NCBI GenBank assembly: GCA_043812975.1
Contig: JBDRLP010000001.1
Span: forward strand, 1-52,421
DNA length: 52,421 bases
Direction: 5' to 3'
DNA from: Candidatus Iainarchaeum sp.
GTDB lineage: Archaea; Iainarchaeota; Iainarchaeia; Iainarchaeales; Iainarchaeaceae
Both the position numbers and the translations under genes were made by a program. Positions within the stretch are counted from its first letter, which is position 1; the number at the start of each line of letters is the position of its first letter. The notes beneath the pieces were generated by a model. The model worked only from the letters and a program-made list of their open reading frames with translations, did no database searches and was not told the origin of the DNA. Below, piece by piece: positions 6,425-49,856 of this stretch.

Positions 6425-7296
6425 TCTGCAGCCTCCGCTTCCACAGTTTCCCCCTTCGGGGACTTCGCGTCTGTGGGCTGCGATGCACCCTGCTTTGCAG
6501 GGGGCTGCTCTTCAGTTTTTTCTGAAGTTTCCTCTTTCTTAGTTTCTTTTACTTCTTTTTTCTCTTCAGCTTTAGGTTTTTCTGGTTTTACTTCTACCTT
6601 AGGTTCTTCTTTTTCTTTCTTAGCTTCCGGCTTTTCAGTTACTTTTTCCTTTTTCTCTTCAACCCCTTTACCCTTCCCTTCGGTCAGGGCACCTTTGGCG
6701 GGACTCCCTTTGGTCGCAGGGGCATCTTTCTTTTCGCCTGTTTGAGTTTCTGCATCTTTTCCTGCTGATTCCTCAAACTCTTTCTTTAAATCTTTCTTTG
6801 GTTTTTCATTTTCAATCTTTAATGGTTTTCTATGCCAGCCAAGTTCTGAAACCTCATCTATATGAACCAAATAACCTGGTGCTGAAATTCTTTTTCCTTT
6901 AAGTGAAATATGTCCGTGAACAATGAACTGCCTTGCCTGCTTTGAAGTATTTGCAAGACCTTTTCTCAGGATTATTGTTTGTAATCTTTTTTCAAGTAGT
7001 TCCTCAACTTTCAATCCTAAAACATCATCTAATATAGCGTCAGATTTTACAAGATTGATTTTTCTCAAACCACTCATTAGTTCTTTTTCTCTTACCATTC
7101 TTGTTTCAAGAGGTAATGCCAAAAGACTTCTAGCAATTCGTCTTTTATTCCTTAACCAGGTTGTGTGTTTTCTCAATTCTTTCTTGTTTTTCAAACCATA
7201 AAAATTAACGAGTTTTCTCTCTGATACAAGTAATTGTTTATCCCACTTTTTTCTTGGGGTGCTGTATTGTTTTCTTCTTTTTTTAGGATCGCCCAT
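6421..7296 (-). CDS. rps4: 30S ribosomal protein uS4 with about 120 aa Lys/Glu-rich C-terminal tail carrying two repeat insertions
   Basis: MGDPKKRRKQYSTPRKKW, LEKRLQT, ARQFIVHGHI. Confidence 0.97.
   Translation of the reverse strand: MGDPKKRRKQYSTPRKKWDKQLLVSERKLVNFYGLKNKKELRKHTTWLRNKRRIARSLLALPLETRMVREKELMSGLRKINLVKSDAILDDVLGLKVEELLEKRLQTIILRKGLANTSKQARQFIVHGHISLKGKRISAPGYLVHIDEVSELGWHRKPLKIENEKPKKDLKKEFEESAGKDAETQTGEKKDAPATKGSPAKGALTEGKGKGVEEKKEKVTEKPEAKKEKEEPKVEVKPEKPKAEEKKEVKETKKEETSEKTEEQPPAKQGASQPTDAKSPKGETVEAEAAE
6441..6508 (+). repeat. Palindromic element copy, in frame in the uS4 tail (encodes QPPAKQGASQPTDAKSPKGETV)
   Basis: CCACAG/CTGTGG stem with nested CCCC-TTC-GGGG hairpin, plus CCCTGC-TTT-GCAGGG. 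Confidence 0.85.
6676..6719 (+). repeat. Palindromic element copy, in frame in the uS4 tail (ATKGSPAKGALTEG)
   Basis: GGCGGGACTCCCTTTGGTCGC, near-identical to the copies at 21444 and 36326. Confidence 0.85.
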
Positions 7297-7302
7297 TTTT
7301 CA

Positions 7303-7923
7303 TCACTTTTTTTTGTCCTTTTGTGTATCCTTCTTTGTTACTCCTACAGTAGTACCTTTATTCCTGTGAGTAGACTTATTTCTCTGGCCTCTTACAGGAA
7401 GCTTCCAAGTATGCCTTAATCCTCTGTAAGACTTGATTTCCCCAAGCCTCTGAAGGTCAGTTCTCAGGCCAAATTCAAGTTCACCCATAATTCTGTGAGT
7501 GTCTTCTCCTGTTGTAAAATCATTTTGTCTGTTAAGGCTCCAAGCAGGAATATTAAATTTTGTTGGGTTAAGCACAATCTGTTCGAGCTTTTTTACTTGT
7601 TCTTCTTTAATCTTTCCCAGTTTTTCATTTCCTGAAATTCCGGTTTCTTTTTCAAACACAATAGTCATGTTCTTAGCCATTCTCAAGCCAATCCCTCTGA
7701 TTTTAGTCAAAGCTCTTACTATTGTTGAGCTTCCGTTTAAATCATTGTCAGCAACCCTGACTATAAGTTCAACCTCTTCTACTGGTTTTTGAAATTTCTT
7801 TTCTGCAACCGTTGCGTCGGTGGATGCCCTTTGGGCGGCGTCCGCCTTCGGTAGGACTGCCTTGTCCGTAGCTTTTGCTTCATTTTCGTTAGCTTTTTCT
7901 TGTTCTTTTTTTTCTTCAGTCAT
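7303..7923 (-). CDS. rps13: 30S ribosomal protein uS13 with N-terminal extension
   Basis: ALTKIRGIGLR, SYRGLRHTWKLPVRGQRNKS. Confidence 0.97.
   Translation of the reverse strand: MTEEKKEQEKANENEAKATDKAVLPKADAAQRASTDATVAEKKFQKPVEEVELIVRVADNDLNGSSTIVRALTKIRGIGLRMAKNMTIVFEKETGISGNEKLGKIKEEQVKKLEQIVLNPTKFNIPAWSLNRQNDFTTGEDTHRIMGELEFGLRTDLQRLGEIKSYRGLRHTWKLPVRGQRNKSTHRNKGTTVGVTKKDTQKDKKK
7807..7860 (+). repeat. Palindromic element copy, in frame in the uS13 N-terminus (AVLPKADAAQRASTDATV)
   Basis: ACCG-TTGCGT-CGGT plus GTCCGCC-TTC-GGTAGGAC; matches the copy at 13703. Confidence 0.88.
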
Positions 7924-10953: not shown

Positions 10954-11415
10954 CTAGTTCATACTAATTATAAGTTTGTTAATTTCTTCTCCTCGATAGC
11001 CAAGTGCTCCACCTACTGTGAATGGCTTTTTTATACCTGCTCTCTTGTGTCCTTTTCTGGGAGGATGTAATCTTATCACAGGAACAATTCCTAAATCCTT
11101 AAGTTTTACTTTTCCTTCGATAACACTTTTAGCTAATTCTTCAAAGCTGTTAATTTTCTTTTCTTTTAAAAATTCAAGTATAATTTTCTTTTTGCCTTCT
11201 AATCTTCCTCTTTTTGCAAGAACCTTTGTAAGAGTTTCTTCGTTTATTTCCCCGAAAGCAACGTAATCTTTTATTTTTTCAACCATTTTTTTGGAAGGGT
11301 TATCATCTTTGACCAAAACCATGTGGTTTGGTCTGAACAATCTTAAATTTTCCATAGTGTATGTTAAACTAGGGTTAACGTTCACAGTTCCTCTTATTCT
11401 AATAACTGCTATCAT
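10954..11415 (-). CDS. rpl30: 50S ribosomal protein uL30
   Basis: IAVIRIRG, RLHPPRKG, GALGYRGEEINKLI. Confidence 0.96.
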   Translation of the reverse strand: MIAVIRIRGTVNVNPSLTYTMENLRLFRPNHMVLVKDDNPSKKMVEKIKDYVAFGEINEETLTKVLAKRGRLEGKKKIILEFLKEKKINSFEELAKSVIEGKVKLKDLGIVPVIRLHPPRKGHKRAGIKKPFTVGGALGYRGEEINKLIISMN

Positions 11416-11501
11416 CTTTTAGCCTCCAATTCAACAGTTGCGTCTGTTGGGTACGCATACGTCCACCCTATCTGCGATAGGGTATAAATATTCAAATTCA
11501 T
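11412..11501 (-). CDS. Bridge mini-ORF, 29 aa (MNLNIYTLSQIGWTYAYPTDATVELEAKR)
   Basis: ATG overlaps the uS5 stop (ATGA); its TGA overlaps the uL30 ATG. Translation is inferred, not shown. Confidence 0.5.
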   Translation of the reverse strand: MNLNIYTLSQIGWTYAYPTDATVELEAKR

Positions 11502-11517
11502 CTTTTAGCCTCCAATT
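11412..11517 (+). repeat. Junction element (11432-11497) flanked by a 20-bp direct repeat of the uS5/uL30 junction
   Basis: TCATCTTTTAGCCTCCAATT at 11412-11431 and 11498-11517. Hairpins CAACAG-TTGCGT-CTGTTG and ACCCTATC-TGC-GATAGGGT. Confidence 0.92.
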
Positions 11518-12713: not shown

Positions 12714-13150
12714 TTTTTAGCCTCCCCTACCATTGCTTGAACATACTTCTTTCCCTTGAAGTATCCTCCTTTAATCATCAAATAAATCTGTCTTGCTGGT
12801 TTTTTCAGTTTAACACCGCTTTCTTTCATTTCTTTCAGAACTCTTCTTTGAGCTCTGACATTCTTAATCCATTTTTCTTTCTTGTTGGATCTTGCGTTTT
12901 TCTTTCCTGTTCTTTTACCATGGCCTTTTTTTCTTCCTTTCTTTTTCTTTGCTTTTAAGACTCTGGCCTTTGATTTGCTCTGAAGATTATCCTTTCTTTT
13001 TTTGATAACTCCATCTTTGATAAGTATTCTGACATCCTCTTTTGTCATGGCTTCTTTAACTTTTTGTCCTTCGCTTGGACTGATGTATACTTTGGTTTTC
13101 CCAATCTTGAGGAGTGCTGCTGTGATTGTTTTTGCTTTTTTGTTATCCAT
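12710..13150 (-). CDS. rpl19e: 50S ribosomal protein eL19
   Basis: AMTKEDVRILIKDGVI, GHGKRTGKKNAR, KWIKNVRAQRR. Confidence 0.96.
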   Translation of the reverse strand: MDNKKAKTITAALLKIGKTKVYISPSEGQKVKEAMTKEDVRILIKDGVIKKRKDNLQSKSKARVLKAKKKKGRKKGHGKRTGKKNARSNKKEKWIKNVRAQRRVLKEMKESGVKLKKPARQIYLMIKGGYFKGKKYVQAMVGEAKK

Positions 13151-13265
13151 TAACGGACACCTCCGTTAGCGAGGTGTGCACCTCATTGCAAAACCTTCGG
13201 TTTTGCGATGCCCCGTATCCGAAGGATACAAGGTTGGTAGCACATACATAAAGTTTCAAATTCAT
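13143..13265 (-). CDS. Bridge mini-ORF, 40 aa (MNLKLYVCATNLVSFGYGASQNRRFCNEVHTSLTEVSVNG)
   Basis: ATG overlaps the eL32 stop; TAA overlaps the eL19 start (ATGGATAA). Confidence 0.45.
   Translation of the reverse strand: MNLKLYVCATNLVSFGYGASQNRRFCNEVHTSLTEVSVNG
13151..13261 (+). repeat. Junction element with SD-containing hairpins between eL32 and eL19
   Basis: CACCTCCG...GAGGTGTGCAC...GTAGCAC shared with the copies at 39044 and 40958. Nested GCAAAACC-TTC-GGTTTTGC and GTATCC-GAA-GGATAC hairpins. Confidence 0.85.
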
Positions 13266-13897
13266 GGGTTTAACACCTTGATTCCTTTTTCTATTGCCTT
13301 GTCAACTATTGCCAGTTTTTTCTTTCTTCCGAGTCCTGAAGCAACTCTTATTGCGTGTTTGTCAGGAACATTGTTTATTTCCTGGATTGTTTTAACATTA
13401 AATTCTCTATATCCGCTTGGGTGAATGTCCCTAATTTCTTTAGGCGTCCTGAAACCCTCTTTTGGGGTATAACCATCACACATTTCGTGCTTTACGTCAA
13501 TTCCTCTTGGGAATCTCCATTTGTTCCACTTCGGGTTACTTTTCTTTCTAAGGCTTCTTTTTCCAAACCTTCCTCTGAAAGTAGGAGTTCCCTGTTTCTG
13601 GTTAACTTTTCTTCTTGTTTTAGCAACCGCAGCGTCGGTTTTAATTTGAACCTTTCTGCTCTTTTTCACTTTCTTTGGTTTTGCTTCTTTTGAATCTTTA
13701 ACTACCGTTGCGTCGGTAGGGTGCGCGTCCGCCTTCGGCAGGACTGCTTTAACATCTTTTTTAGCATCAGTTTTTTTTGTTTTAGTTTTAGGTGCAGCTG
13801 CTTTAATTTTCTCTTTAACAGCAACCTTTGCTTTAGGTTTTTCTTTTACTGTTTCTGCTTTTTTAGTTTCTTTTTTTTCTGTTTTCTTTTTAACCAT
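13262..13897 (-). CDS. rpl32e: 50S ribosomal protein eL32 with about 95 aa Lys-rich N-terminal extension
   Basis: PTFRGR, KWRFPRGID, IRDIHPSGYRE. Confidence 0.95.
   Translation of the reverse strand: MVKKKTEKKETKKAETVKEKPKAKVAVKEKIKAAAPKTKTKKTDAKKDVKAVLPKADAHPTDATVVKDSKEAKPKKVKKSRKVQIKTDAAVAKTRRKVNQKQGTPTFRGRFGKRSLRKKSNPKWNKWRFPRGIDVKHEMCDGYTPKEGFRTPKEIRDIHPSGYREFNVKTIQEINNVPDKHAIRVASGLGRKKKLAIVDKAIEKGIKVLNP
13696..13753 (+). repeat. Palindromic element copy, in frame in eL32 (AVLPKADAHPTDATV), flanked by 7-bp direct repeats
   Basis: CTTTAAC at 13696-13702 and 13747-13753; insert plus one repeat is 51 nt (17 codons). CTACCG-TTGCGT-CGGTAG and GTCCGCC-TTC-GGCAGGAC hairpins. Confidence 0.9.
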
Positions 13898-15533: not shown

Positions 15534-15680
15534 AATAATCACTCTGCTTCCACCGTTGCGTCACCCTTGCGGGTACTCCCTTCGGTCGCGGCGGAGTACG
15601 CGTCCATCTCGCCCGTTAGGGATGGACTCGGTAGGACTTGCTCATTTCGTTTGCATTTCACCATAATAATCACTCTGCTT
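15530..15680 (+). repeat. Composite junction element (15550-15660) flanked by a 20-bp direct repeat of the eS4/uL5 junction
   Basis: CCATAATAATCACTCTGCTT at 15530-15549 and 15661-15680; contains several family modules. Confidence 0.92.
15539..15664 (-). CDS. Bridge mini-ORF, 41 aa (MVKCKRNEQVLPSPSLTGEMDAYSAATEGSTRKGDATVEAE)
   Basis: Starts at the ATG of the upstream repeat copy and ends exactly at the duplicated eS4 stop. Confidence 0.5.
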   Translation of the reverse strand: MVKCKRNEQVLPSPSLTGEMDAYSAATEGSTRKGDATVEAE

Positions 15681-16398: not shown

Positions 16399-16837
16399 CT
16401 TCTTTCACCTTCTCCTTTTTATTTGCTTTAACTTCTGTTTTTGCCCCTGCACCCTCACGGGTATTCCCTTTGGTCACAATTTTTTTACCTTTTAATCTTC
16501 TGTCATCTTTATCCTCAATATTTACAATCATCAAATTACTCGCTTTGAAAGGAATCTGAATTTCAGTGCCGTCTAATCTTTTTCTTGTTATTCCTTCAAT
16601 AAGCACCTGTCTTTTTTGTCTTAAAATTGCAGTAATATGCCCCTGCTTTCCGACAAACTTTTCATTCCCTCTCATTATCTTTACTGTGTCTCCTTTTCTT
16701 CCATCCAGACTTCTTTTTCCAATGCTTTCCTTCAATTCCTTGCTTAAGTGCATTGCGAATTCTTTTTGCTGTAAGTGTAATGGTTTGGTGTAATGCCATT
16801 TTCTCTGTTTTTTTGGTTTTGAACTTGTTAATGTCAT
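16388..16837 (-). CDS. rpl24: 50S ribosomal protein uL24
   Basis: SSKPKKQRK, RKGDTVKIMRG, PFKASNLMI. Confidence 0.96.
   Translation of the reverse strand: MTLTSSKPKKQRKWHYTKPLHLQQKEFAMHLSKELKESIGKRSLDGRKGDTVKIMRGNEKFVGKQGHITAILRQKRQVLIEGITRKRLDGTEIQIPFKASNLMIVNIEDKDDRRLKGKKIVTKGNTREGAGAKTEVKANKKEKVKEDGK
16444..16477 (+). repeat. Short palindromic element copy, in frame in the uL24 tail (VTKGNTREGAG)
   Basis: CCCCTGCACCCTCACGGGTATTCCCTTTGGTCAC is the 21444 copy lacking its middle hairpin. Confidence 0.8.
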
Positions 16838-18340: not shown

Positions 18341-19198
18341 TCACTCTTTTTTATCCTCAGCTTTTTCTTCTTTAACTTCTTCCTTTTTTTCTTCAGGCTT
18401 CTCTTCCTTTGCTGGTTTTTCCGCTTTTTTCTCTTCTTTTTTAGGTTCTTTCTTTTCCTTAACTTCAGTTTTTTCTTTAGTTTCCTTTACTTTTTTCTTC
18501 TTTTCTTCTTCTTTTGAAATTTCTTTAGTTGCATCTTTTGTTTCTTTTTCAGTTTCCTCAGTTTTTTCTTTTTGTACTTCGGAAGCTTCTTCTTTTCCTT
18601 TAATATAATCTGTAATCTTTTCCTTATCCGGGAAAACCGTGTCAGGATGCACAATTTTAATTTTAATCCCGATTGCTCCTACTTTAGGGTAAGCATCTGC
18701 TTTACCATAATCAACAAGTCTTGCTTGCTCTCCGACTTTTTTCAAATAACCATAAGCAATTCTCTGTTTTCTTTTTCTTCCCGCTTTTCCAGCAATCTTT
18801 CCGCTTAAAATAATTTCTAACCCCTGCGCTCCGGCTTTTTTGGTTTCGTTTACTGATTTAAACACAATACTTCTCCATGAGAATCCTCTTTCAATAAGAG
18901 CTTTCATCTTGTTTGCAACAGCTTGTGCATCAAGTTCAGGATTTTCAATTTCTCTAATCTCTAATTGCGGGTTATCAATGCCAAATCTGCTTCCGATTGT
19001 TTCTGTTAATTGTGTAATGTTGGAACCGCTTTTTCCGATTGCAAGCCCTGGTCTTGTAACATTAACAACAATTCTTGTTACTAATGGGGTTTTCACAATC
19101 TCTGATTTTGTAAAGCCGGCCCTTTCAAGTTCTTTTGAAAGATAATCGTCCAGTTCAAGTTTTTTTAATCCCTGTTCAATGAAATATTTTTCTATCAT
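18341..19198 (-). CDS. rps3: 30S ribosomal protein uS3 with Lys/Glu-rich C-terminal tail
   Basis: KTPLVTRI, RPGLAIGKSG, ERGFSWR; start at 19198 overlaps TAATG. Confidence 0.97.
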   Translation of the reverse strand: MIEKYFIEQGLKKLELDDYLSKELERAGFTKSEIVKTPLVTRIVVNVTRPGLAIGKSGSNITQLTETIGSRFGIDNPQLEIREIENPELDAQAVANKMKALIERGFSWRSIVFKSVNETKKAGAQGLEIILSGKIAGKAGRKRKQRIAYGYLKKVGEQARLVDYGKADAYPKVGAIGIKIKIVHPDTVFPDKEKITDYIKGKEEASEVQKEKTEETEKETKDATKEISKEEEKKKKVKETKEKTEVKEKKEPKKEEKKAEKPAKEEKPEEKKEEVKEEKAEDKKE

Positions 19199-19394
19199 TA
19201 TTTGGCCTCCATCCACAGTTTCGGCTGTGGGCTACGATAACCCAAGCTCCTTTCAGTCGCATGGGTTTGGCTCACTCCGTTCGCTATAATCATTATTTGG
19301 CCTCCATCCACAGTTTCGGCTGTGGGGTGCACGTACCATCTTCGCTTGTGCTCGATGCTACTTAAAATATTAAAAATCATTATTTGGCCTCCAT
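19194..19394 (+). repeat. Two tandem junction elements between three copies of a 19-bp uL22/uS3 junction
   Basis: ATCATTATTTGGCCTCCAT at 19194-19212, 19289-19307 and 19376-19394. Both inserts begin CCACAGTTTCGGCTGTGGG. Confidence 0.93.
19198..19380 (-). CDS. Bridge mini-ORF, 60 aa (MIFNILSSIEHKRRWYVHPTAETV...KLWMEAK)
   Basis: ATG overlaps the uL22 TAA; reads through both inserts; its TAA overlaps the uS3 ATG. Confidence 0.5.
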   Translation of the reverse strand: MIFNILSSIEHKRRWYVHPTAETVDGGQIMIIANGVSQTHATERSLGYRSPQPKLWMEAK

Positions 19395-19850
19395 TACAAC
19401 TATTTCCAAGTGGGTTGATTTACTCTGCCTTCTTTTACCTGAAATTCTCCCCTGACTCTGGTATGAAGCCCTCTGGAAGCCTTGGGATGCGAACATGTGT
19501 GTTATCAAAAGATTTTCTGAATCAAGACCTTTGTAATCTGCATTAGCCTGTACTGATTCAAGTAACTCAACAAAAGCAGCTAAACATCTTTTTGGATATC
19601 TCCCTATTTTTGTGAATCCTTTTGAGTCTCCTTTTTTGTGTCCGATTTTTTTGTTATATTTTCTTAATGGTAAGAATTCTTCTTCGTTAATTATTCTCTG
19701 TAACCATGCTAATGATTTGTCAACCCTTTTTCCTTTAATATTGCTGATGATTTCCACACTATATTTTAACGAAACCGGCTTGTTTTTCATCATAGCCTGT
19801 GCGGTTTTTTTGGAATTGATTTTCTGCACTTGCATTGTTTTCTTTACCAT
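19380..19850 (-). CDS. rpl22: 50S ribosomal protein uL22
   Basis: GRYPKRC, NADYKGLD, THLEIVV. Confidence 0.96.
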   Translation of the reverse strand: MVKKTMQVQKINSKKTAQAMMKNKPVSLKYSVEIISNIKGKRVDKSLAWLQRIINEEEFLPLRKYNKKIGHKKGDSKGFTKIGRYPKRCLAAFVELLESVQANADYKGLDSENLLITHMFASQGFQRASYQSQGRISGKRRQSKSTHLEIVVMEAK

Positions 19851-20988: not shown

Positions 20989-20989
20989 T

Positions 20990-21067
20990 TTATCTAACTC
21001 CAACGCCGTTTGCGATCGGCGGTACCGCGCCCACCTTTGGTAGGGCAGATGTATTTTTTATAGCCAT
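20990..21067 (-). CDS. Bridge mini-ORF, 25 aa ([25 protein letters not shown])
   Basis: ATG overlaps the uL23 TAA; its own TAA lies 1 nt before the uL2 ATG. Confidence 0.5.
   Translation of the reverse strand: MAIKNTSALPKVGAVPPIANGVGVR
21001..21047 (+). repeat. Junction element between uL23 and uL2
   Basis: CGCCG-TTTGCGAT-CGGCG plus GCCCACC-TTT-GGTAGGGC; closely matches the copy at 34207. Confidence 0.85.
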
Positions 21068-21546
21068 TATATTACACCTAACTTTGTAGCTATATCATCA
21101 GCTTTATATTTTTTGTCAATTGTAACAATTGCTTTCTTTCTTGATTTCATATCCTTAATGATGTTAACTGCGTTGACCTTAACTTTGTAAAGTCCTTCTA
21201 TTGATTTTTTTATGCTGATTTTATTAGCTTTTTTATCAACAATAAATGTAAGTTTGTTTTCTGCTTCAATCATGTTAACTGCTTTTTCTGTAATTAAAGG
21301 ATACTTAATAATTGTCAAACCTTCAATTTCTGCTTCAATTTCTTCTAAAGTTTTTTTCCCTTTCTTAACTTCCTTTTTCTTTTCTTTCTTTTCCTCTTTT
21401 TTATAATCTTCTTTTTTTGCTTCGGCTTTATGTGTGTGCTTTTCCCCTGCACCCTTACGGGTACCTTCGGCGGGACTTCCTTTGGTCGCAGCTTTCTTAG
21501 CTTCCTTTTTTGTTTTTACTTTTTTTTCTGTTTTTTTCTTAGCCAT
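21067..21546 (-). CDS. rpl23: 50S ribosomal protein uL23 with Lys/Glu-rich N-terminal extension
   Basis: [30 protein letters not shown]. Confidence 0.96.
21444..21491 (+). repeat. Palindromic element copy, in frame in uL23 ([16 protein letters not shown])
   Basis: GCACCCTTACGGGTACCTTCGGCGGGACT identical to the copy at 36326. Confidence 0.92.
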
Positions 21547-21556
21547 TTCAATTCAC

Positions 21557-22459
21557 CTAAGCTTTTGCCTCACCCGAGCGTGCTCTTCCTCTGCGAGGAC
21601 CTAAGGGTCGGGAGGGAGCGTCCACCTTCGGTAGGACTTCCTTTTTTACTTCTTTCTTTTCACCAGCTAATTGTTTAATTGCATTCTCTGACCAGAGAGT
21701 TAATCTTCCCGGTAGAGTTCCTGGTGCTAAAAGATCAGCATTAATATTAACCGCACTTATAATGTCAACCCCTTCAAGGTTTCTTGCTGCTTTGTAAACA
21801 TTCTCTGGGTTTTCAACTACAATCAAAACACTTTTTCTTTTCTTGTATTTTCTTCCTCTCTTTTTTCCTTTTCCAGGTCTTAATTGTCTTTTACTCAAAG
21901 CCTTTTCTACATCCTGATAAACATCAATTGCTTTCAAAGCATCTCTAATATCTTTTGTTTTTGCAAGGGTTTCAAGCTTTGCTTCAACAACAATCGGAAA
22001 CTCTAATTTTTCTCCAAACTTGTGGCCTCTTTCTTTTACTAATTCTTTTTTTCCTGTTGCTGCGATTGCTGATTCAGTTGCCTGTCTTTTTTCTTTTTTA
22101 TTTATTTTTTCTTCCCATTCTTTGTTTGGCTTTGGAGGGTGTGCTTTTGGGCCTCCAACAACAGCCGGAATACTAGCAACGTGTCCTGAAAGGATTCCTC
22201 TTCTGTTTTTCAATCTTGGCTTTCTAGCATGGCCAACGTTAATTGTTCTGTGAATATTAGGTTTGTGCCTAGCTCCGATATATTCCGCAGTGTTTGCCCT
22301 TCCTGCTTCAGGTTTAGGGAAACTGTTTTGAACACCAGCAGACTGAATTGCCTGCACTGCTCTTTTAATAAGTGCTAGATTAATATCCGCAGAGAACTGC
22401 TTTGGTAAAGTAATATCAGGACCTTTTGTCCCATCCAAACCTAAAACACTAGCTTTCAT
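21557..22459 (-). CDS. rpl4: 50S ribosomal protein uL4
   Basis: VVGGPKAHPPK, KINKKEKR, RPGKGKKRGRKYK, LLAPGTLPGRLT. Confidence 0.97.
   Translation of the reverse strand: MKASVLGLDGTKGPDITLPKQFSADINLALIKRAVQAIQSAGVQNSFPKPEAGRANTAEYIGARHKPNIHRTINVGHARKPRLKNRRGILSGHVASIPAVVGGPKAHPPKPNKEWEEKINKKEKRQATESAIAATGKKELVKERGHKFGEKLEFPIVVEAKLETLAKTKDIRDALKAIDVYQDVEKALSKRQLRPGKGKKRGRKYKKRKSVLIVVENPENVYKAARNLEGVDIISAVNINADLLAPGTLPGRLTLWSENAIKQLAGEKKEVKKEVLPKVDAPSRPLGPRRGRARSGEAKA
21571..21638 (+). repeat. Palindromic element copy, in frame at the uL4 C-terminus (EVLPKVDAPSRPLGPRRGRARSG)
   Basis: GCGTCCACC-TTC-GGTAGGACT module plus CCTC-TGC-GAGG hairpin. Confidence 0.85.
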
Positions 22460-23914: not shown

Positions 23915-25762
23915 TTATTCTCGTGAAACAAGAAATATTCCTATTAACAAAATAAGCAAAATTATCCCTAACAATAAACCATTATCGCTTAAGAATGAAA
24001 AACCAGTTGCCAAAAAACTATTATCCGGTTCTACTTGTTCGTTTCCGCCATCTATTGGAATGTGAACTTCAACTGTTTGAGGTTCTGGTCGGAAAGGTTC
24101 AGAAGCAACCTGAATAACATTAGTATACTTTTGTAAGTATTCTCTGTCATCAGCTTTAACATCAAAGAAGATTGTTCCGTCTTCATCCAAACCATTAATT
24201 GTTACAATTCTTTCACTTAATGTTTTTGGACTAATAGTAAATTCTTTTGGAGAAACTAAAACGTCATTAGAGTAAACTTTTACAGTAATAACTTCGTTGC
24301 TTGGATTATCTACTTCAAAACTCACAAAACCTGCTTTGCCCTTTACTTTAACCTCTGCAGGATTGTAAAGTTTAACCTGATCAAGTCCTGGTTCGTTTTC
24401 TAATCCATTAACTCTCACATAAAAAGTATCTGACGATAATGCGCAATTCATACCTGAATTAAAATGACCATTAATTGTAATGTAAGCACTTCCAGTACTG
24501 TCTTCCTCTGGGTCAGAACCATGAGCTCTTACTTTTATTGCAGTTGTCTGTCCTGAATAAACAGTGCTTAATTCTCTGTAAGCTTCGATTCCAAAATCAG
24601 GGCTGTAATCAACAGCTTCAATATTATCTATGTGGAAGTTTTCTGTTGAATAATTCCTGAAAGTAAAGTAAGCTGTTTTGTCATCATTTGCTTCAACGAC
24701 AAAGTTTTCTTCTCCGATTGAAAGAGAACTACAATTAGCTGTTGGAATCTGAGGTTCTTCATAATAAGTAACAATTGTTTCTGGCAATTCCTCTACATGA
24801 ACTGGAGTAGGAGTAACTTCTACCCATTCCTGTTGCGACTGAAAGGAGTCTCTTGCTACGTTGAAAGAAGTACTTCCCTGTGAATTACAATATGCTGTGC
24901 TTCCATTTACACAATCCTGTACGTAAGGTCGTACATTGCTTACTCCATTTACATTAACATAAAAGTCTCTTTCAAGATCAGAACCAGTACATCTGACTCC
25001 GTCTCTGAATGTTCCTGTAACATTAATAGTGGCCCTTCTTGCCTGACTTGTTACGTAAGGTTCAGCACTCAAATAAAACTCGATTCTTTCAGTTGAATTG
25101 CTTCTTACAACTCCGTCATGTCTTATGTTTGAAATATCAACATCAAAACCATCAACGTAAATGTAAACATTCTCCAAATCCATATCCATTGAGGAATAGT
25201 TGTTCACATAAAAAACAACGCTTCTTTCAGTTCCTGAATTGATAGTAACATTGTTCACATTCAAACTTGTTTCTCCGCAATCAGTTCTGACTGTAGGGTG
25301 ATAATTCTGTCCTGTTAGGGTAGCATTTCCAATGGCATAATTCCCCTGAGGCGCGTAATAAGTATCGTAAACCGTTGGAGGATAATAGTAAGCTCCGTAA
25401 TAACTTGGTGCGTAAGAATCAATCCATCCAGGGTAATAATTCCAATAATTGTTGTAATAGTAATAATCAGGTCCGTAGTAAGAGTAATAATTTGAATAAG
25501 GGTAATTTACAAAGCCGTCATCAAAAGTATACCATCCTGGTTCAAAGTAATGATAATCTCCGTAAGAGTAAACCCTGTACGGGTAATCAAAGTAGTACCA
25601 GCCGTCATAGTTGTATGAATAAGGTGTGGCTGAGTAATGGTAATTATTTCCTTTTGAAATTTCGAAATAAAAATTGTCGCTTTGATAGCTCAAGAAAAAC
25701 CCAGCACTTACAGTGCTTATCATGAATAGTAATGCTATTGCAAGTAATCCCCAAGCTTTCAA
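23915..25762 (-). CDS. Secreted, membrane-anchored surface protein: Tyr-rich N-terminal region, beta-rich repeated domains, C-terminal TM
   Basis: Signal peptide MKAWGLLAIALLFMISTVSA; Tyr/Asn/Pro-rich first 130 residues or so; C-terminal GLLLGIILLILLIGIFLV. Ig-like fold is inferred only. Confidence 0.8.
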   Translation of the reverse strand: MKAWGLLAIALLFMISTVSAGFFLSYQSDNFYFEISKGNNYHYSATPYSYNYDGWYYFDYPYRVYSYGDYHYFEPGWYTFDDGFVNYPYSNYYSYYGPDYYYYNNYWNYYPGWIDSYAPSYYGAYYYPPTVYDTYYAPQGNYAIGNATLTGQNYHPTVRTDCGETSLNVNNVTINSGTERSVVFYVNNYSSMDMDLENVYIYVDGFDVDISNIRHDGVVRSNSTERIEFYLSAEPYVTSQARRATINVTGTFRDGVRCTGSDLERDFYVNVNGVSNVRPYVQDCVNGSTAYCNSQGSTSFNVARDSFQSQQEWVEVTPTPVHVEELPETIVTYYEEPQIPTANCSSLSIGEENFVVEANDDKTAYFTFRNYSTENFHIDNIEAVDYSPDFGIEAYRELSTVYSGQTTAIKVRAHGSDPEEDSTGSAYITINGHFNSGMNCALSSDTFYVRVNGLENEPGLDQVKLYNPAEVKVKGKAGFVSFEVDNPSNEVITVKVYSNDVLVSPKEFTISPKTLSERIVTINGLDEDGTIFFDVKADDREYLQKYTNVIQVASEPFRPEPQTVEVHIPIDGGNEQVEPDNSFLATGFSFLSDNGLLLGIILLILLIGIFLVSRE

Positions 25763-25773
25763 GTTTTCAACCC

Positions 25774-26151
25774 CTAGCTAATCCATGAAGGATAATCGTA
25801 GTATCTGGTGTTGTAATTATATCCATTATTACTGGCGTAGTAGTAATAGTCTGGATAATAATCGTTGTAATAATTTGACCCGTAATAGTTCCCGTAATAG
25901 TTAGGGTAATAGTTGTTGTATCTCCCGTAATAGTCAGGAGCATATGACCAATAACTATCAGGGTAATATGAATTGTAATAGTAGCTGTCGTACTGGTATG
26001 GGGCTACATAGTAGTCCACGTAATAATCGTAATAATTTCCCGCATAAACTGTGTAGTGGTTTCTGTAAGCGCCATCATACACGTATGGGTAATAAGCACT
26101 TGCCTGTGCTGCAAAAAGAATTATTAATCCAAGAATCAACCATTGTTTCAA
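25774..26151 (-). CDS. Secreted Tyr-rich low-complexity protein (125 aa)
   Basis: Signal peptide MKQWLILGLIILFAAQASA; 44 Tyr in 106 mature residues; TTG start with GGGGG SD and upstream TTTATATA. Confidence 0.8.
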   Translation of the reverse strand: MKQWLILGLIILFAAQASAYYPYVYDGAYRNHYTVYAGNYYDYYVDYYVAPYQYDSYYYNSYYPDSYWSYAPDYYGRYNNYYPNYYGNYYGSNYYNDYYPDYYYYASNNGYNYNTRYYDYPSWIS

Positions 26152-29363: not shown

Positions 29364-32300
29364 TTAGTCCATGAAAAATGAAGCAGGTTTTACTTCAGGA
29401 TCCATTCCTTTTCTCTTTCTTATTTCTTCAATAGTTGATTTTTGTAACTCACGTGGCAGTAACTCGTATCCTGCGTATTCAGCAGTCCAAAGAGCTCTTC
29501 CTTGAGTAGCCCCCCTGATGTTGCTTGAGAATCCGATTAGTTCTTTTACTGGGGCTTTTCCGATTATAATACTAGAATCTCCTTCAGTCCTCATTTCATT
29601 AATTTGAGTCCTTCTGGAGCCTAGTTCATTACTTACTGCGCCCAGGTAAGTTTCTGGAACTGTAATTGTAAGTTTTTGTTTTGGCTCATACAACACAGCA
29701 TCTGCTGAAAGCATACAAGCATAGCATCCTCTTGTTACTGTTGGCAACATTTGCGCAGGTCCCCTGTGAATTGCATCTTCGTGTAATGTAGCGTCTTCAA
29801 TTACAACTTTTACTCCAAAGCATTTTTCTTTTGCTAATGGTCCCTGATCCATTACATCAGTAAAACCCTGAATAACCAATTCTCTGATTTCGTGTAAAGC
29901 TTCAATTCCTCTTGTTGCATCAACTAAAACACAGTTGTTGTGTACTGCCCAGATTTTTTTGGATTCTTCTCTTCCAAAACCCATTTCCTGGAACATTGTA
30001 ATCTTTTCTTTATCTTTTGGCTTAACTTTTCCATCAAAATGTGACTTGATAAGATTCTGTCTTGTTTCCTCATCAATTAATTCAACGTGCAATTTCAGCT
30101 TGTTGTGTTTGTTAGGGCTTTTTGCCTCAACTGTTGGTGAATCCTTTCCAATAGTTTCACGGTAAACAACAATTGGCTGTGAAACTGTAATTGGAATGTT
30201 GTGGTGTTTTTCAATTCTATATTGAGTAATTTCTAAGTGTAATTCCCCCATTCCTGAAAGTAAATGTTCGCCGGTCTCCTGATTGATTGTGGCTCTTATG
30301 TTAGGGTCTTCTTTGGTAATTTGTCTTATAGTTTCAATTAACTTTGGTAAATCTTTTGTGCTTTTTGCTTCAACTGAAATTGTTATTACTGGTTCTGCTT
30401 CACTCATAAAACTTTCGAATGGTTTTATTTCTTCTGAAGCAATTGTTTCTCCAGCATAAACTTCTTTCAAACCTACAAGTGCTACAATGTTTCCTGCAGG
30501 AACTTCATTAGCTTCAATAAAATCCGGGCCCATAAAAATCCCGACTTTCTGAATCTGGATTTCTTTTTTTCCGCCGACCAAATAAACTTTACTTCCTTTT
30601 TTTACTTTTCCTGAATAACATCTTCCTGTTGCAATATCTCCTGAATGTTTATCAACACTAACATCAGTAACCATCATTGAGAATGGACTATTTTCATTAC
30701 AAGTAATCATTCCTTTTCCCATTTCGCTTTCCTTTTCCCCTTTCCAGATTATAGGCATCCTGTATTTTTGTGCCTCAATAGGATTTGGCAAATGAGTAAT
30801 AACCATTTCAAGTACAGCGTCACTTAAATGACTTTTTTCAGCAAGTGATTTTTGATCTTCATTTTTTAAGTATTCGTAAACCTGTTTGAAATTAATTTTA
30901 GTAGCTTCCATTCTTGGAACTGATACTGCCCAGTTATTGTAAGCTGATCCAAAGCACACAGAACCATCCTGGACTTTTACAGTCCACTCGTTTTTGAATC
31001 CCAGAGGACAGTTTTTTGAAATTAAATTATTAACATTAGCAATAACTTTCACAAACTTTTCCTGCATCTGCTGTTCAGTAACCTGCAGTTCGTTAATAAG
31101 CCTGTCAACTTTGTTAATATACAAAACAGGTTTTACGTATTCTCTCAAAGCCTGCCTTATTACTGTTTCTGTCTGCGGCATTACTCCTTCAACAGCATCA
31201 ACAACTAACACAACTCCGTCAACAGCTCTCATTGCTCTGATTACATCCCCTCCAAAGTCAACATGCCCCGGAGTATCAATAAGGTTGATTAAGTGCTCTG
31301 TGTCTTTGTACTTGTGTAATAGTGAAATGTTTGCAGCATTAATTGTTATTCCTCTTTCCTGTTCCTGATCCTCAGAATCCATTACAAGTTGCTTTCCAGC
31401 TAACTCTGAACTCATTAATCCTGATGCAGAAATAAGGTTATCTGTCATCGTGGTGTTGTGAACAACTATTGTTTCTGCTACAAAATTTTTTGTTTCTGGA
31501 ACACTAAAATCATAAATTGTTTCCTCAAAACCATCTTTTATTCCAGAAACCTCGATAAAAGCTAATTGACTAACATCTATTGCGGAGTTAATCCCTTTTT
31601 CTTTTAGTTTTAAAACCATTTTTTGATAAGTGTTTCTTGTCGGTATATAAATTTCGTTTTCGTATTTGTAATAATGTTTGTCTATTTCATTTTTTGATAA
31701 TTGTTTTCCTTCCCTTGATTCTTTAAATCCATTCATGGGTATTAGATCACATACCTGGCTTCCAACAATGGTTTTTTCCAGTTCTTTTGCTTTTTTCATT
31801 TTTTCCGGCAAAAAGAAACCAATATTTTTAACAAAGTTTGAGAATGATTCCCCGCTGATGGATATTGTATTGTCTTTTTCCTTTATTGCTACACATCCGA
31901 ATCTGTTTAACAATAATGGCAGCTCATCAATCATTTGATTGCTGGCACTGCTAATTGTGATTGCTTTTCTGCCTGTTTCAACGCTTCCATCAGTATCGAA
32001 GTAGCCCTTTAAAAATTTGGTAACCAACTCAGATGGAGACTTTTGCAGGAATTTTGATATTTTTACGTTGTGTGATTTTTTCTTTAAAGGATAATCAAAC
32101 AGTGCTTTTAGAATGTTTGTTAATGTTTTACTCACGCCTATTTCCGGTGTTTTTCCTTCATAGTTTCTGTTGTGTGTTTTTAATCCAAATTCTTTGCATA
32201 TTCTTTTGAATTCTTTTCCGAGTAAAGGTTTCCCGACAACAAATTTGCTTTCAGTTCCGTCCCCTATCATTAATCCCGCTAAATAAAATAATTCTTTATA

Positions 32301-33086
32301 GTTTGGTTCCCATTTTAAGTAATCGCTTCTTCTTGTTGCAATTCCACCAATCCAATTAACAATCGCTTCTTCTTCAAACTCAAAGTAATTAGATATTCCG
32401 AATAAATCAGTTAGTTGATATTTCCCGTTCCAAATACAATGATAGAATGATTTTTCTTTTAGGTTAGTTTTAATGTTTTTATAAATTTTATCAATTCCTT
32501 CTTCTAAAATTTTGTTTTTTAAATTTTCAGAAGAGTCTTTTTTTAACTTTGCATAAAAATTGTTTTTTGAAAGTATTTTTAGTAATTCCAGTGAAACATC
32601 CATTTCAGCTATTGTTTTTGTTTCTCTTGCCGTAACAATTCTTTGTCCTTTTTGTATTTCCTCTGCTTTCAAATAAGATAATTCTTTTCCATCAAAAGTA
32701 AGGAACTTGTGTTCTGGTGTTGTGGAAATACTAGATCCGTTTCTTAGGGTAATTTCTTTTGTGTTTCCGCCCTTTAGTTTCCATGCATGGGAAATTTTTT
32801 TTGTGACTATTTTACCTGTTTTTGTATCTACAGAAAAAACTTTGATGTCTTTATTTAAAGCGTAAACAATTTCCGAATTGTTTTCTTTTACTTTTTCACC
32901 ATAAAGAGAAGAGTCATTAAATAATTCTCTTGCGGTTATAAAATTCCCGTTTTCTAATTGTATTCTAGTGTCCGGGGCAACACATTTACCATGGTCAATG
33001 TGGGCAACAATCCCGATGTTTCGGATGTTTTCTCTTTTGTTCATCAGCTGTGCAGCTAATTTTACAATATCTTCTTTTTTTACCAT
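29364..33086 (-). CDS. fusA: Elongation factor 2 precursor with intein (mature protein 730 aa)
   Basis: AHIDHGK|TTMTDNL, ERGITI, DTPGHVDF, NKVDR; diphthamide site DAIHRG. Confidence 0.97.
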   Translation of the reverse strand: MVKKEDIVKLAAQLMNKRENIRNIGIVAHIDHGKCVAPDTRIQLENGNFITARELFNDSSLYGEKVKENNSEIVYALNKDIKVFSVDTKTGKIVTKKISHAWKLKGGNTKEITLRNGSSISTTPEHKFLTFDGKELSYLKAEEIQKGQRIVTARETKTIAEMDVSLELLKILSKNNFYAKLKKDSSENLKNKILEEGIDKIYKNIKTNLKEKSFYHCIWNGKYQLTDLFGISNYFEFEEEAIVNWIGGIATRRSDYLKWEPNYKELFYLAGLMIGDGTESKFVVGKPLLGKEFKRICKEFGLKTHNRNYEGKTPEIGVSKTLTNILKALFDYPLKKKSHNVKISKFLQKSPSELVTKFLKGYFDTDGSVETGRKAITISSASNQMIDELPLLLNRFGCVAIKEKDNTISISGESFSNFVKNIGFFLPEKMKKAKELEKTIVGSQVCDLIPMNGFKESREGKQLSKNEIDKHYYKYENEIYIPTRNTYQKMVLKLKEKGINSAIDVSQLAFIEVSGIKDGFEETIYDFSVPETKNFVAETIVVHNTTMTDNLISASGLMSSELAGKQLVMDSEDQEQERGITINAANISLLHKYKDTEHLINLIDTPGHVDFGGDVIRAMRAVDGVVLVVDAVEGVMPQTETVIRQALREYVKPVLYINKVDRLINELQVTEQQMQEKFVKVIANVNNLISKNCPLGFKNEWTVKVQDGSVCFGSAYNNWAVSVPRMEATKINFKQVYEYLKNEDQKSLAEKSHLSDAVLEMVITHLPNPIEAQKYRMPIIWKGEKESEMGKGMITCNENSPFSMMVTDVSVDKHSGDIATGRCYSGKVKKGSKVYLVGGKKEIQIQKVGIFMGPDFIEANEVPAGNIVALVGLKEVYAGETIASEEIKPFESFMSEAEPVITISVEAKSTKDLPKLIETIRQITKEDPNIRATINQETGEHLLSGMGELHLEITQYRIEKHHNIPITVSQPIVVYRETIGKDSPTVEAKSPNKHNKLKLHVELIDEETRQNLIKSHFDGKVKPKDKEKITMFQEMGFGREESKKIWAVHNNCVLVDATRGIEALHEIRELVIQGFTDVMDQGPLAKEKCFGVKVVIEDATLHEDAIHRGPAQMLPTVTRGCYACMLSADAVLYEPKQKLTITVPETYLGAVSNELGSRRTQINEMRTEGDSSIIIGKAPVKELIGFSSNIRGATQGRALWTAEYAGYELLPRELQKSTIEEIRKRKGMDPEVKPASFFMD
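31455..32984 (-). mobile_element. Intein (510 aa) with LAGLIDADG homing endonuclease, in the EF-2 P-loop
   Basis: Begins CVAPDT after GK; ends NFVAETIVVHN before T; TTPEHKF block B; LAGLMIGDG and FLKGYFDTDGS endonuclease motifs. Confidence 0.96.
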
Positions 33087-35063: not shown

Positions 35064-36425
35064 TTATTTTTTCATTACAAGAGTTACCCTGCCTGTTCCA
35101 ACCTTAATAGGCTGACCAACTATAATGTTTTCAACAACACCTTCAAGAGTTTCTATTTCTCCCTTGAATGCTGCGTCTAACAAGTGTTTTACTGTTTCCT
35201 CAAATGCTGCTCTTGCGAAAGGACTTGCTTTTCCTCTTGTGATTCCTGTTCTTACAATTCCTCTGATTTCTCCGTCAAAGCACATTGAATCAGCTAATAG
35301 CATTATATGTCTTATGTCAACTGCAATACTATTATCCTTCAGAACTCCAGATAATTCATTTACAATCGCCATTCTTCCTGCTTCAATTCCCAATACTTTG
35401 CTGATTTCTTTAATGTCATTAGTGGTTGTTTTTGAACCATTAATTTCCGGCAGTTTCACAATTGCTTTTAAGTTAGTGCCTCTGGTTTTAATGACTTTCT
35501 CGTTGTTCTCATCTATAAGAATAACTTTTTCAATTCCTCTGATTCCCTGAATCCTTGTTGATTTCAGTTTGTTCATGGTTCTTCTGATTTTTAAAAGTGC
35601 TTCATTTTTGAAAATAAAATCAAGCAAATACTTGTCTTTTCTTTTCCCCTCCATCTTTATGTGCTTATTGATTTTTGCAACAAGCTCATCAATATCAACA
35701 TTTCTTGATTCGATTGCTTCCTTATCAAGTTCAATTGTAACTTTTCCCTTGAATAAATCTTCATGAATTTTAATAACATCATCAATTCTTACATCAATTA
35801 ATGTTTTTGCAAAAGCATCAAGTTTTTTCTCATCTTTATTTAATTCTTCATCATCGATGTAAATTGTCATTATAGGATATTTAGCTTTTAATCTCCCGTC
35901 AACAATTTCTTCAACCCTCTGGATTCCTGATCCAACACTTACTTCTGCAGAACCCGCATAGTGTTTTGTTCTAAGTGTCAATTGTGTTCCTGGTTCCCCA
36001 AGACTTTGTGCAGTAATAATTCCTACTGCTTCTCCAGGTTCAACCATGCTTTTTTCATATCTTTCTTTAACTTGTGAAAATAGTTTTTCTTTTTCCTTGT
36101 CATTAATTTTTAATTCATTAGCGACTGTTTCAAAATCCATTAATACTTTTTTAGGAATTCCTTCTGTTTCAAAAAGATCTCCTTGTACAAATACTCTTTC
36201 AACTTCCACTACTTCTTTTTTGGTTGTTTTTTTTGGTTTCTTAACTGTTTTAGTGGTTTTTTTAGCTGTGGGTTTTGCCTTTTCACTCTTATCTTTGGTT
36301 GTGGTCTTTTTCATAGTTTTCTTAACCCCAGCACCCTTACGGGTACCTTCGGCGGGACTCCTTTTGGTCGCTGCTTTTTTTGTTTCTTTCTTTTCTTTTT
36401 TCTTGGTTTCTTTTTTTGCAACCAT
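35064..36425 (-). CDS. rpoA2: RNA polymerase subunit Rpo1C (A'') with Lys/Thr-rich N-terminal extension
   Basis: [38 protein letters not shown]. Confidence 0.97.
36326..36372 (+). repeat. Palindromic element copy, in frame in Rpo1C ([16 protein letters not shown])
   Basis: Near-identical to the copy at 21444. Confidence 0.92.
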
Positions 36426-39043: not shown

Positions 39044-39129
39044 TACGCGGTCACCTCCGCGTGTGAGGTGTGCACTTCGCTTGGGCTCAGTAGCACTGGC
39101 TCACATCCGTTCGCAAAATCATTTTTCAT
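39043..39129 (-). CDS. Bridge mini-ORF, 28 aa (MKNDFANGCEPVLLSPSEVHTSHAEVTA)
   Basis: ATG 4 nt after the rpoB' stop, with GGTG SD; its TAA overlaps the rpoA' ATG. Confidence 0.5.
   Translation of the reverse strand: MKNDFANGCEPVLLSPSEVHTSHAEVTA
39044..39115 (+). repeat. Junction element with SD-containing hairpins between rpoB' and rpoA'
   Basis: CACCTCCG..GAGGTGTGCAC..GTAGCAC plus CTCACATCCGTTCGC module. Confidence 0.85.
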
Positions 39130-40957: not shown

Positions 40958-41015
40958 ATGCGGAGACCTCCGCATTCAGAGGTGTGCACCTGCGGTAGCA
41001 CCTATTAAAATTCAT
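40950..41015 (-). CDS. Bridge mini-ORF, 21 aa (MNFNRCYRRCTPLNAEVSAYG)
   Basis: ATG overlaps the rpoB'' stop; TAG overlaps the rpoB' start (ATGGTTAG). Confidence 0.45.
   Translation of the reverse strand: MNFNRCYRRCTPLNAEVSAYG
40958..41000 (+). repeat. Junction element with SD-containing hairpins between rpoB'' and rpoB'
   Basis: ATGCGGAG-AC-CTCCGCAT and GAGGTGTGCACC..GTAGCAC. Confidence 0.85.
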
Positions 41016-49679: not shown

Positions 49680-49856
49680 AAAATTCAATTTTTTCCAGTT
49701 CTACACCGGCTTCTTTCAGCACCACAGTTGCCCCCTTCGGGGATCCCTGTGGGACGGCTGTGGGGTGCGCGTACCATCTTCGTCACGCCTAGTAGGCGGG
49801 ACTCGATGCTACTCAAAATTCAATTTTTTCCAGTTCTACACCGGCTTCTTTCAGCA
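49680..49856 (+). repeat. Palindromic element (49722-49814) flanked by a perfect 42-bp duplication of the dCMP deaminase 3' end
   Basis: AAAATTCAATTTTTTCCAGTTCTACACCGGCTTCTTTCAGCA at 49680-49721 and 49815-49856; core matches 19308-19375. Confidence 0.93.

Follow-up and report, generated by a model that had tools for sequence, protein, structure and literature searches.

Probable successive insertion of two small hairpin elements, each with the same 19-nucleotide target duplication, at the uL22/uS3 junction of an Iainarchaeota archaeon

A 52,421-nucleotide (nt) stretch of DNA (contig JBDRLP010000001.1, referred to below as the window) from an Iainarchaeota (DPANN) archaeon contains an archaeal S10/spc-type ribosomal-protein operon comprising uL3, uL4, uL23, uL2, uS19, uL22, uS3 and uL29 onward. 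At the junction between uL22 and uS3, three copies of one 19-nt sequence enclose two small GC-rich hairpin elements, named E1 and E2. We conclude that this array was probably produced by two successive insertions of two different members of one element family at a single coupled junction. A 19-nt copy of the target flanks each insertion, which leaves the end of uL22 intact and uS3 with its own ribosome-binding site and start. The window genes considered here are all on the minus strand, and positions refer to the whole window. The features of the locus, in the order of transcription, were as follows.

19380..19850, minus strand: uL22 (rpl22), 156 amino acids (aa), C-terminus VVMEAK followed by TAA; from the list of open reading frames (ORFs) and the translation
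19376..19394, minus strand: junction copy 1, exact 19-mer; last four codons of uL22, TAA and the overlapping ATGAT, with an internal GGAGG Shine-Dalgarno (SD) motif
19198..19380, minus strand: 60-aa bridging mini-ORF (P0003), opening at an ATG that overlaps the stop of uL22 and closing at a TAA that overlaps the start of uS3
19308..19375, minus strand: E1, 68 nt; AT-rich leader, P1/P2 module, linker and terminal hairpin P3
19289..19307, minus strand: junction copy 2 (target duplication), exact 19-mer; own GGAGG and ATG, opening a 31-aa reading
19213..19288, minus strand: E2, 76 nt; 5' module, central hairpin and terminal hairpin P3, with the folding computed
19194..19212, minus strand: junction copy 3, exact 19-mer; TAA stop of the mini-ORF together with the SD motif and ATG of uS3
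18341..19198, minus strand: uS3 (rps3), 285 aa from the ATG at 19198, with a Lys/Glu-rich tail; from the translation

The junction sequence ATGGAGGCCAAATAATGAT, in which the uL22 stop and the uS3 start are joined, occurred exactly three times in the window on the minus strand, where about 0.03 matches were expected by chance even with three mismatches permitted. The copies were spaced by 68 nt (E1) and then 76 nt (E2), giving periods of 87 and 95 nt. Exact matching and coordinates thus bore out the preliminary description, made from the sequence alone, of three 19-bp copies separating inserts of 76 and 68 bp; reading the sequence likewise confirmed that the 87-nt period is in frame and that the 95-nt period lands on the duplicated TAA. 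Junction copy 1 is the genuine end of uL22, and its ATG, which overlaps the stop, opens the 60-aa mini-ORF. The uS3 start (MIEK.F; codons ATG ATA GAA AAA) agreed with that of relatives in the alignment, and a GTG-started uS3 of 291 aa is an example of a spurious N-terminal extension resulting from element insertion. The two downstream repeats are in fact identical over 38 nt, comprising the last 19 nt of E1 or E2 and the junction that follows (38/38), since both elements terminate in the hairpin C-CCACAG-CCGAAA-CTGTGG.

The inserts had been described as related, and they are so in module architecture, which places them in one element family. In sequence they have only the last 19 nt in common: alignment of the E1 body (49 nt) with the E2 body (57 nt) was no better than that of shuffles, 316 of 1000 of which scored as high. 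E1 consists of a leader (19363-19375), the P1/P2 module (19332-19362), a GUGCACC linker and P3 (19308-19325). Its P1/P2 module is laid out as GUAGCAUC-GAG-hairpin-CGAA-GAUGGUAC and was matched by the family covariance model with 39.7 bits (E 1e-9); the fold z-score of E1 was -3.1. In E2, the 5' module GCGAACGGAGUGAGC (19270-19284) comes first, followed by a central hairpin AACCCA...UGGGUU (19239-19267), which is a deviant P1/P2-like module, and then by P3 (19213-19230). A T5 tract (ATGATTTTTAAT) was observed directly after the uL22 stop, in the stretch formed by that stop and the E1 leader (19363-19380, minus strand). Oligo-T is the archaeal intrinsic termination signal, and the E1 insert might attenuate transcription into uS3 through this tract.

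E1 and E2 belong to a family of small, non-coding GC-rich hairpin elements of about 35-110 nt, with further members in other Iainarchaeota. The window's GC-rich islands, about 20 in number (GC about 0.62 against a background of 0.36), all lay on the gene strand and were made up of the same hairpin modules. P1 is an 8-bp helix, GURNCAUC/GAUGGNAC; it closes an internal GA/GAA loop that is invariant and surrounds a hairpin that varies. P1 was paired in 88.9% of cells over ten instances, compared with 28-47% in slid controls, and double-sided changes were found at four of its eight pairs. The P1/P2 covariance model gave 17 matches in 219 kb, untrained ones included, and every one of them was on the sense strand. 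P3 has a stem of 5-6 bp enclosing NNCGCAA, which in E1 and E2 is CCGAAA; it was 92.6% paired with 13 compensatory cells, a result equalled by none of 500 shuffles, and was found in sense orientation ten times and antisense once. The P3 sequence CCACAG...CTGTGG also occurred at 6.4 kb and 49.7 kb in the window. Besides E2, at least nine other elements carried the 5' module GCGAACGGAGUGAGC (at 15.6, 39.1 and 42.5 kb in the window, and in the relatives L009, L010, L012, L014, L027 and L028), generally directly upstream of the P1/P2 module.

A short-word BLAST search of the array against the window revealed a paralogue of E1, named E3, which reads GAGTAGCATCGAG[..]CGAAGATGGTACGCGCACCCCACAGCC[..]AACTGTGG and stands after a kinase/dCMP-deaminase gene whose last codons are duplicated over 42 nt at its flanks.

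49680..49856, element at 49722-49814, minus strand: E3, 93 nt; the same P1/P2 and P3 with enlarged hairpins; 38.3 bits

Comparison of E1 with E3 indicates that extra hairpins can be nested inside the family hairpins. In the nine duplication-flanked copies inspected, the 3' boundary was always the end of P3, abutting the downstream duplicate, and the 5' content was variable, starting at the leader, at a GCGAACGG module or at P1/P2. The ends of these copies were not inverted repeats (5' ATTTGAATAT.., TATAGCGAAC.. and GAGTAGCATC..; 3' ..GCAACTGTTG and ..GAAACTGTGG). Copies were also met in other contexts. A sludge metagenome contig contained E2 at 70/70 nt, including part of P3, followed by a different upstream flank, and a marine metagenome contig held the P1-3'/P3 part of E1 between unlike flanks. 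A relative in the public sequencing run X2 had two E1-like P1/P2 cores elsewhere and none at uL22/uS3. These copies support independent mobility of the elements.

The uL22/uS3 junction was empty in the closest relatives. A protein search with uL22 yielded 15 genome and 17 metagenome relatives (identified here by L numbers), all of them in Iainarchaeota assemblies. The closest were L001 and L016 (uL22 97% identical in aa) and L002 (96%), with 86-89% nt identity over 6.8 kb. In these three the junction is uninterrupted, reading ...GTAATGGAGGC.AA.TAA(A)TGAT.GAAAAA, also given as ...ATGGAGGC.AA.TAA(A)TGAT..., and the multiple alignment placed a single window-only block of 181-182 nt at this site. 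A contig of the related genome in run X2 likewise jumps from 19198 to 19380. The junction with no unit, which the preliminary description had proposed looking for in related genomes, was therefore found in L001, L002 and L016. Since the junction is empty in the closest relatives, both units were gained after the split, and the ancestral state was a directly coupled stop and start. Four further islands in the 6.8-kb stretch shared with L001, L002 and L016 were confined to the window (21573-21623, 21445-21489, 20989-21065 and 16443-16475). At the last of these, in a ribosomal-protein tail, the window has a 33-nt element, L001 has a different one (GTCCTACCGAAGGTGGAC and P3) and L002 has none; a separate element is present near the site in L002. 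The pattern suggests that this one coding site was hit recurrently.

On the tree of uL22 and uS3, occupied uL22/uS3 junctions were found in the window, L010 and L028, each with an empty-site sister (L001/L016/L002 for the window, L004/L018/L019 for L010, and L012 for L028, supported at 100/99). Given the well-supported branches, no fewer than three changes of occupancy are needed; the junction of L015 was occupied as well. The uL22/uS3 junction thus appears to be a recurrent target, occupied independently in at least three lineages. At the uS19/uL22 junction of L014 (2779-3000), two different elements stand in tandem with a 28-nt junction duplicate between them at 86% identity, which would make this site an older analogue of the uL22/uS3 array. 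A separate observation concerns the near-identical metagenome contigs L021 and L022, which agree as far as the first ~30 nt of uS3 (~2085 onward in L021), after which L021 diverges completely; a chimeric contig or a rearrangement is possible.

Duplication of the target was seen at other copies too, in the window and in relatives.

uL22/uS3 (E1 and E2): 19-nt duplication, two events
uL2/uS19 of L012: 19-nt duplication; 68-nt element, period 87, dimensions as in E1
11412..11517, minus strand: sister case at uS5/uL30 (11.5 kb); 66-nt element, 20-nt duplication AATTGGAGGCTAAAAGATGA, 29-aa bridging ORF
15539..15680, minus strand: sister case at 15.6 kb; 111-nt element, 20-nt duplication AAGCAGAGTGATTATTATGG, 41-aa bridging ORF
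42.5 kb: duplication of about 24 nt
34.2 kb: duplication of about 25 nt with three synonymous differences
L011/L026, within the 5' coding region and in frame: 26-nt duplication
49.7 kb (E3): 42-nt duplication

The duplications are long and variable (16-42 nt, with a mode of 19-20) and typical of copies at gene junctions or gene ends. The targets at uS5/uL30 (11498-11517) and uL22/uS3 (19376-19394) were identical at 15 of 18 aligned positions (TGGAGGCYAAA..ATGA), and most duplications started at a purine-rich, SD-like tract, which hints at a target preference.

The inserts leave a reading frame open between the two genes. The 60-aa ORF spanning both inserts was present in the ORF list and in the translation, as the preliminary description had it, and so was the 31-aa version beginning at the GGAGG and ATG of the middle copy in the sequence. 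The frame runs through the 87-nt period, is shifted by the 95-nt period into the frame of uL22, and ends as WMEAK-TAA; it survived in 2.4-4.9% of dinucleotide shuffles. Such bridging ORFs were found at seven of the nine occupied stop/start junctions of the operon, where exactly one frame was open across the insert. They start at an ATG overlapping the upstream stop or a few nt from it and end on, or overlapping, the downstream start. The joint probability of seven bridged junctions out of nine was 1.7e-4 for openness alone and 9e-8 with the frame requirement. At junctions of the duplication type, the start codon in the duplicate opens the ORF and the duplicated stop codon closes it. Other junction elements carried their own hairpin-embedded GGAGGUG and TAATG (13.2, 39.1 and 41.0 kb in the window, and in L010, L028 and L015). 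The selection for open frames argues against intron-like removal and suggests that the inserts remain in the mRNA and are read by ribosomes. A small protein gene was rejected as an explanation, since no bridging ORF matched a Pfam family and the frame in which AGATGGCAC is read differs between L010, L028 and L011, so that the nucleotide conservation is frame-independent.

Translational coupling across the inserts is supported, not proven, by these data. Sequence logic and the shuffle statistics back the earlier proposal that coupling was retained at each step, with the restriction that "each step" holds strictly only if E2 came before E1. E2 alone would give a 31-aa bridge, and E1 alone, with its period of 87 nt, would give an in-frame N-terminal extension of uS3 by 29 aa. 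A single 87-nt unit occurs naturally at uL2/uS19 in L012.

A recurrent 3' module was observed in some elements, GCACACCUC..GCGGAGGUGNCCGC(G)UAAUG, which gives the downstream gene an SD motif and a start context (13143-13184, 39043-39088 and 40960-40999 in the window; ~3680-3706 in L010; ~3530-3565 in L028). It also holds an anti-SD-like CACCUC able to pair with the SD motif, and the module may be a built-in translational switch.

The preliminary description had left open whether the same site was hit twice or was duplicated and then diverged. Two hits are by far the better fit, because the bodies are unalignable while the terminal 38 nt are identical, a pattern that uniform divergence after duplication cannot give but that two different family members with the P3 usual in this genome can. 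A more elaborate course, which we judge unlikely, would be a single insertion followed by tandem duplication of element and junction through unequal crossing-over between the 19-nt repeats, after which the 5' part of one unit was replaced by conversion from another member of the family or by nested insertion/deletion. It would account for the 38 identical nt and for the exactly equal boundaries of the duplications, and the family is indeed modular, with hairpins that can hold further hairpins. However, the unalignable bodies demand the additional replacement event, P3 is a genome-wide module (6.4 and 49.7 kb), so that identical ends need no local duplication, and E2 with P3 was 70/70 identical in another context. 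The same identical ends could also have misled an assembler. The source is a metagenome-assembled genome with short repeats, in which strain alleles bearing E1 or E2 might have been joined through the common 38-nt repeat. Such an artefact is extremely improbable: the k-mer linking P3 of E1 and the junction to the 5' end of E2 is in neither single allele once k exceeds 38, the unit bodies are unique and therefore do not represent collapse or expansion of identical repeats, and a comparable two-element junction was present in the independent assembly L014.

It is very improbable that the inserts serve the host, as a cis-regulatory or processing RNA for uS3 or as a real 60-aa protein gene. The covariation of the conserved folded modules, the openness of the mini-ORF beyond chance and the T5 tract in the E1 leader, a possible archaeal termination signal, could be taken in this sense. 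The inserts are nonetheless missing from the closest relatives (0-nt junction), the same modules are found in unrelated genes and within coding tails, and the conservation is frame-independent with neither a Pfam nor an Rfam match. Direct repeats that, at 19-42 nt, restore the end of a gene are a typical mark of att sites used by integrases, and the repeats here might be read as the attL and attR cores of a larger tyrosine or serine recombinase element that was later mostly deleted. Little credence can be given to this, as the flanking repeat differs from copy to copy while the internal element is always of the same small family, the inserts of 66-111 nt end precisely at a conserved hairpin and have no gene inside, the window contained no integrase or integrase remnant, and the targets are protein-gene junctions rather than tRNA genes.

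Several results weigh against two successive insertions by a duplicating mechanism. Copies in Lys-rich coding tails (33, 45 and 51 nt, all multiples of three) showed no clear duplication, and duplication is consequently not universal in the family. The E1 and E2 events have exactly the same 19-nt duplication, while the near-identical 11.5-kb target is shifted by 1-2 nt in register; an identical duplication occurring twice requires either sequence-determined cutting or the recombination of two single-insert alleles. The P1/P2 covariance model missed the central hairpin of E2. No allele of the uL22/uS3 array with one unit was seen in any sequence compared. The best-matching public sequencing runs had only fragments in common with the window, run X2 had zero coverage of 33-52.4 kb, RNA runs were looked for and none was found, and exact-protein look-ups of uL22, uS3 and the mini-ORF returned no record, hence no second assembly of the locus. 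That the bridging ORFs are translated is something we infer. The window contained no transposase, integrase, reverse transcriptase or Cas1 gene.

With two successive insertions as the preferred explanation, a mechanism can be outlined. Each element would have entered where the strands were broken with a stagger of about two helical turns, the gaps then being filled in, through a trans-acting enzyme that recognises a folded single strand of RNA or DNA. Target-primed reverse transcription or a DNA integrase with a long stagger would be candidates for this activity. The inserts would then stay in the mRNA and be translated as the 60-aa bridging ORF, whose ends, overlapping the uL22 stop and the uS3 ATG, would pass termination-reinitiation coupling across the insert. 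Because of the constant folded 3' end, the variable 5' content, the long and variable duplications and the sense orientation, the anatomy resembles target-primed retroposition more closely than DDE, HUH or tyrosine-recombinase transposition. A DNA integrase whose cuts are two helical turns apart would match the 19-20-nt mode just as well.

A bolder proposal, which we advance as speculative and on balance doubtful, is that an archaeal insertion system not described so far has its cis-part in these elements. Its enzyme, a SINE-like target-primed reverse transcriptase or a new long-stagger integrase, would recognise the 3' hairpin P3 in its folded, single-stranded form, and the element would go in at nicks whose stagger of about 19-20 nt is set by the sequence. 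Since each duplicate recreates the target, the same site could be hit again, and repeat-insert arrays would grow at coupled junctions. The elements themselves would be shaped to hand ribosomes across, by means of the leader ATG, the open frame and the SD-bearing 3' module.

The elements were compared with the nearest known kinds, whose defining features were checked and were not all found here. Small non-autonomous prokaryotic repeats include miniature transposable elements with inverted repeats (MITEs), SM1-4 of Sulfolobus, Correia, ERIC and RUP elements (reviewed in PMC10969869). Like repeats of the MITE type, the elements here are small, non-coding, multicopy, hairpin-forming and co-transcribed, vary in presence between close relatives and presumably depend on a trans-acting mover. 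Insertion polymorphism of the MITE kind was evident: in comparison with relatives, five blocks were confined to the window, which has about 20 islands in all. Unlike MITEs, they have no terminal inverted repeats, and their duplications measure 16-42 nt against the fixed 2-10 nt of MITEs. They are defined not by their ends but by covarying folded modules, and they have a constant 3' and a variable 5' part and lie in sense orientation. Rickettsia palindromic elements (RPEs) are selfish palindromes that survive in expressed sequence by staying in frame (PMC10969869). The copies within coding sequences here are similarly open, at 33, 45 and 51 nt, and junction copies form bridging ORFs. The present elements differ from RPEs in their archaeal host and smaller size, and by judgement only they have no sequence similarity to them; to our knowledge, long target duplications and junction targeting have not been described for RPEs. 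Repetitive extragenic palindromic (REP) sequences and REPINs, which are moved by RAYT, and the PATE repeats derived from IS200/IS605 are imperfect hairpins recognised on one strand, with strand-specific orientation; the elements here likewise have covarying hairpins oriented by strand (P1/P2 17/17 and P3 10/11 in sense orientation). They insert without duplication, and the long duplications flanking the junction copies do not fit them.

Short interspersed nuclear elements (SINEs) and other eukaryotic retroposons moved by target-primed reverse transcription have target duplications of variable length, a 3' end that is constant, a 5' end that varies or is truncated, and a small, structured, non-autonomous RNA-like body, and they hit again near earlier copies. 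The 16-42-nt duplications and the constant 3' and variable 5' ends found here are alike, but the elements have neither an A-rich tail nor a tRNA, 7SL or 5S head (ARAGORN and Rfam negative), and their 3' end is a hairpin. We know of no SINE-like retroposon in archaea. Cas1-Cas2 and casposon integration duplicate a long target, and serial insertion leads to a repeat-insert-repeat-insert-repeat layout. This layout and the long target duplication are shared by the uL22/uS3 array. The repeat, however, is 19 nt long compared with 23-50 nt in CRISPR, is itself a gene junction, and differs from the repeats of the other copies. The "spacers" of 68 and 76 nt are one structured family sharing a terminal hairpin, not foreign fragments of fixed length, and neither cas genes nor casposon inverted repeats were seen in the examined parts of the window. 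The wording "repeat-spacer mini-array" used for this locus earlier is thus a formal CRISPR resemblance only. In yeast mitochondria, GC clusters and byps are GC-rich hairpin mini-insertions in an AT-rich compact genome, and byps are skipped by the ribosome. The present elements share with the mobile GC clusters (PMC4464245) that they are GC-rich hairpins tolerated in expressed or coding regions. In contrast to byps, the elements leave the frames open, an argument for read-through translation, and the duplications are far longer.

Known RNA families were also considered. No Rfam 15 covariance model matched the inserts even at E <= 10, the only match in the window at gathering score being one tRNA, and ARAGORN found nothing at the elements. 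By sequence reading, the hammerhead (CUGAUGA...GAAA), the classical kink-turn and the archaeal bulge-helix-bulge intron did not fit: CAUC/GAUG forms a Watson-Crick helix, the loop GA/GAA measures 2x3, and direct repeats, which are not complementary, make up the boundaries, while the open frames argue for retention in the mRNA. Phage and plasmid collections gave no match. A scan of viral contigs with CATCGAG-N-CGAAGATGG returned mostly chance matches, and only L149 (IMGVR_UViG_3300001598_001090), an AT-rich 8-kb IMG/VR contig, resembled a true module. At 660-800 of this contig, a P1/P2-like module of the form CCATCGAG-hairpin-CGAAGATGG stands by itself (24 bits, E 1.5e-4) and is followed by three iterons GTCATTTTTGACGGTGGT, which may link the module to a DPANN virus or plasmid.

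Further element copies lie in frame within ribosomal proteins, in their Lys/Glu-rich tails, and within an RNA polymerase subunit, at its N-terminus, where they add short Pro/Gly/Val-rich peptides such as VLPKVD.

6425-6728, 7805-7872, 13700-13753, 21442-21641 and 36324-36375: in-frame element copies in the window

Some of the "lineage-specific extensions" that DPANN ribosomal proteins carry are therefore element-derived. Elsewhere in the window, the EF-2 gene (29364-33086, minus strand, 1240 aa) has, close to its N-terminus, an intein that bears a LAGLIDADG homing-endonuclease domain (Pfam Intein_splicing and LAGLIDADG_3). Two orphan ORFs, at 23915-25762 (minus strand, 615 aa) and 25774-26151 (minus strand, 125 aa), lie between the uL3 operon and the RNA ligase gene RtcB; the former had no match in Pfam, NCBIfam or PDB sequences and the latter none in Pfam or NCBIfam.

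A literature search found no published description of such elements in DPANN archaea, and the family is apparently unpublished. New at this locus are the double hit with an identical 19-nt duplication and the quantified case for translatable inserts. The identical double hit and the independent occupation of the junction point to a defined cutting geometry, which provides a handle for the search for the enzyme; we know of no described prokaryotic transposition system with such a geometry. If the proposal of an undescribed archaeal system were true, it would provide a natural, cas-independent route to a CRISPR-like architecture of repeats and inserts. The elements also matter for annotation, as they inflate "intergenic" regions and create spurious small ORFs, and the peptides they insert in ribosomal-protein tails matter where indels of universal proteins serve as phylogenetic markers. 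Few known genomes are as compact as those of DPANN archaea, in which stop and start codons overlap throughout the ribosomal operons. The locus shows how a selfish element can colonise such compact genes without killing them: the duplication rebuilds both ends, the insert is translatable, and coupling is plausibly preserved.

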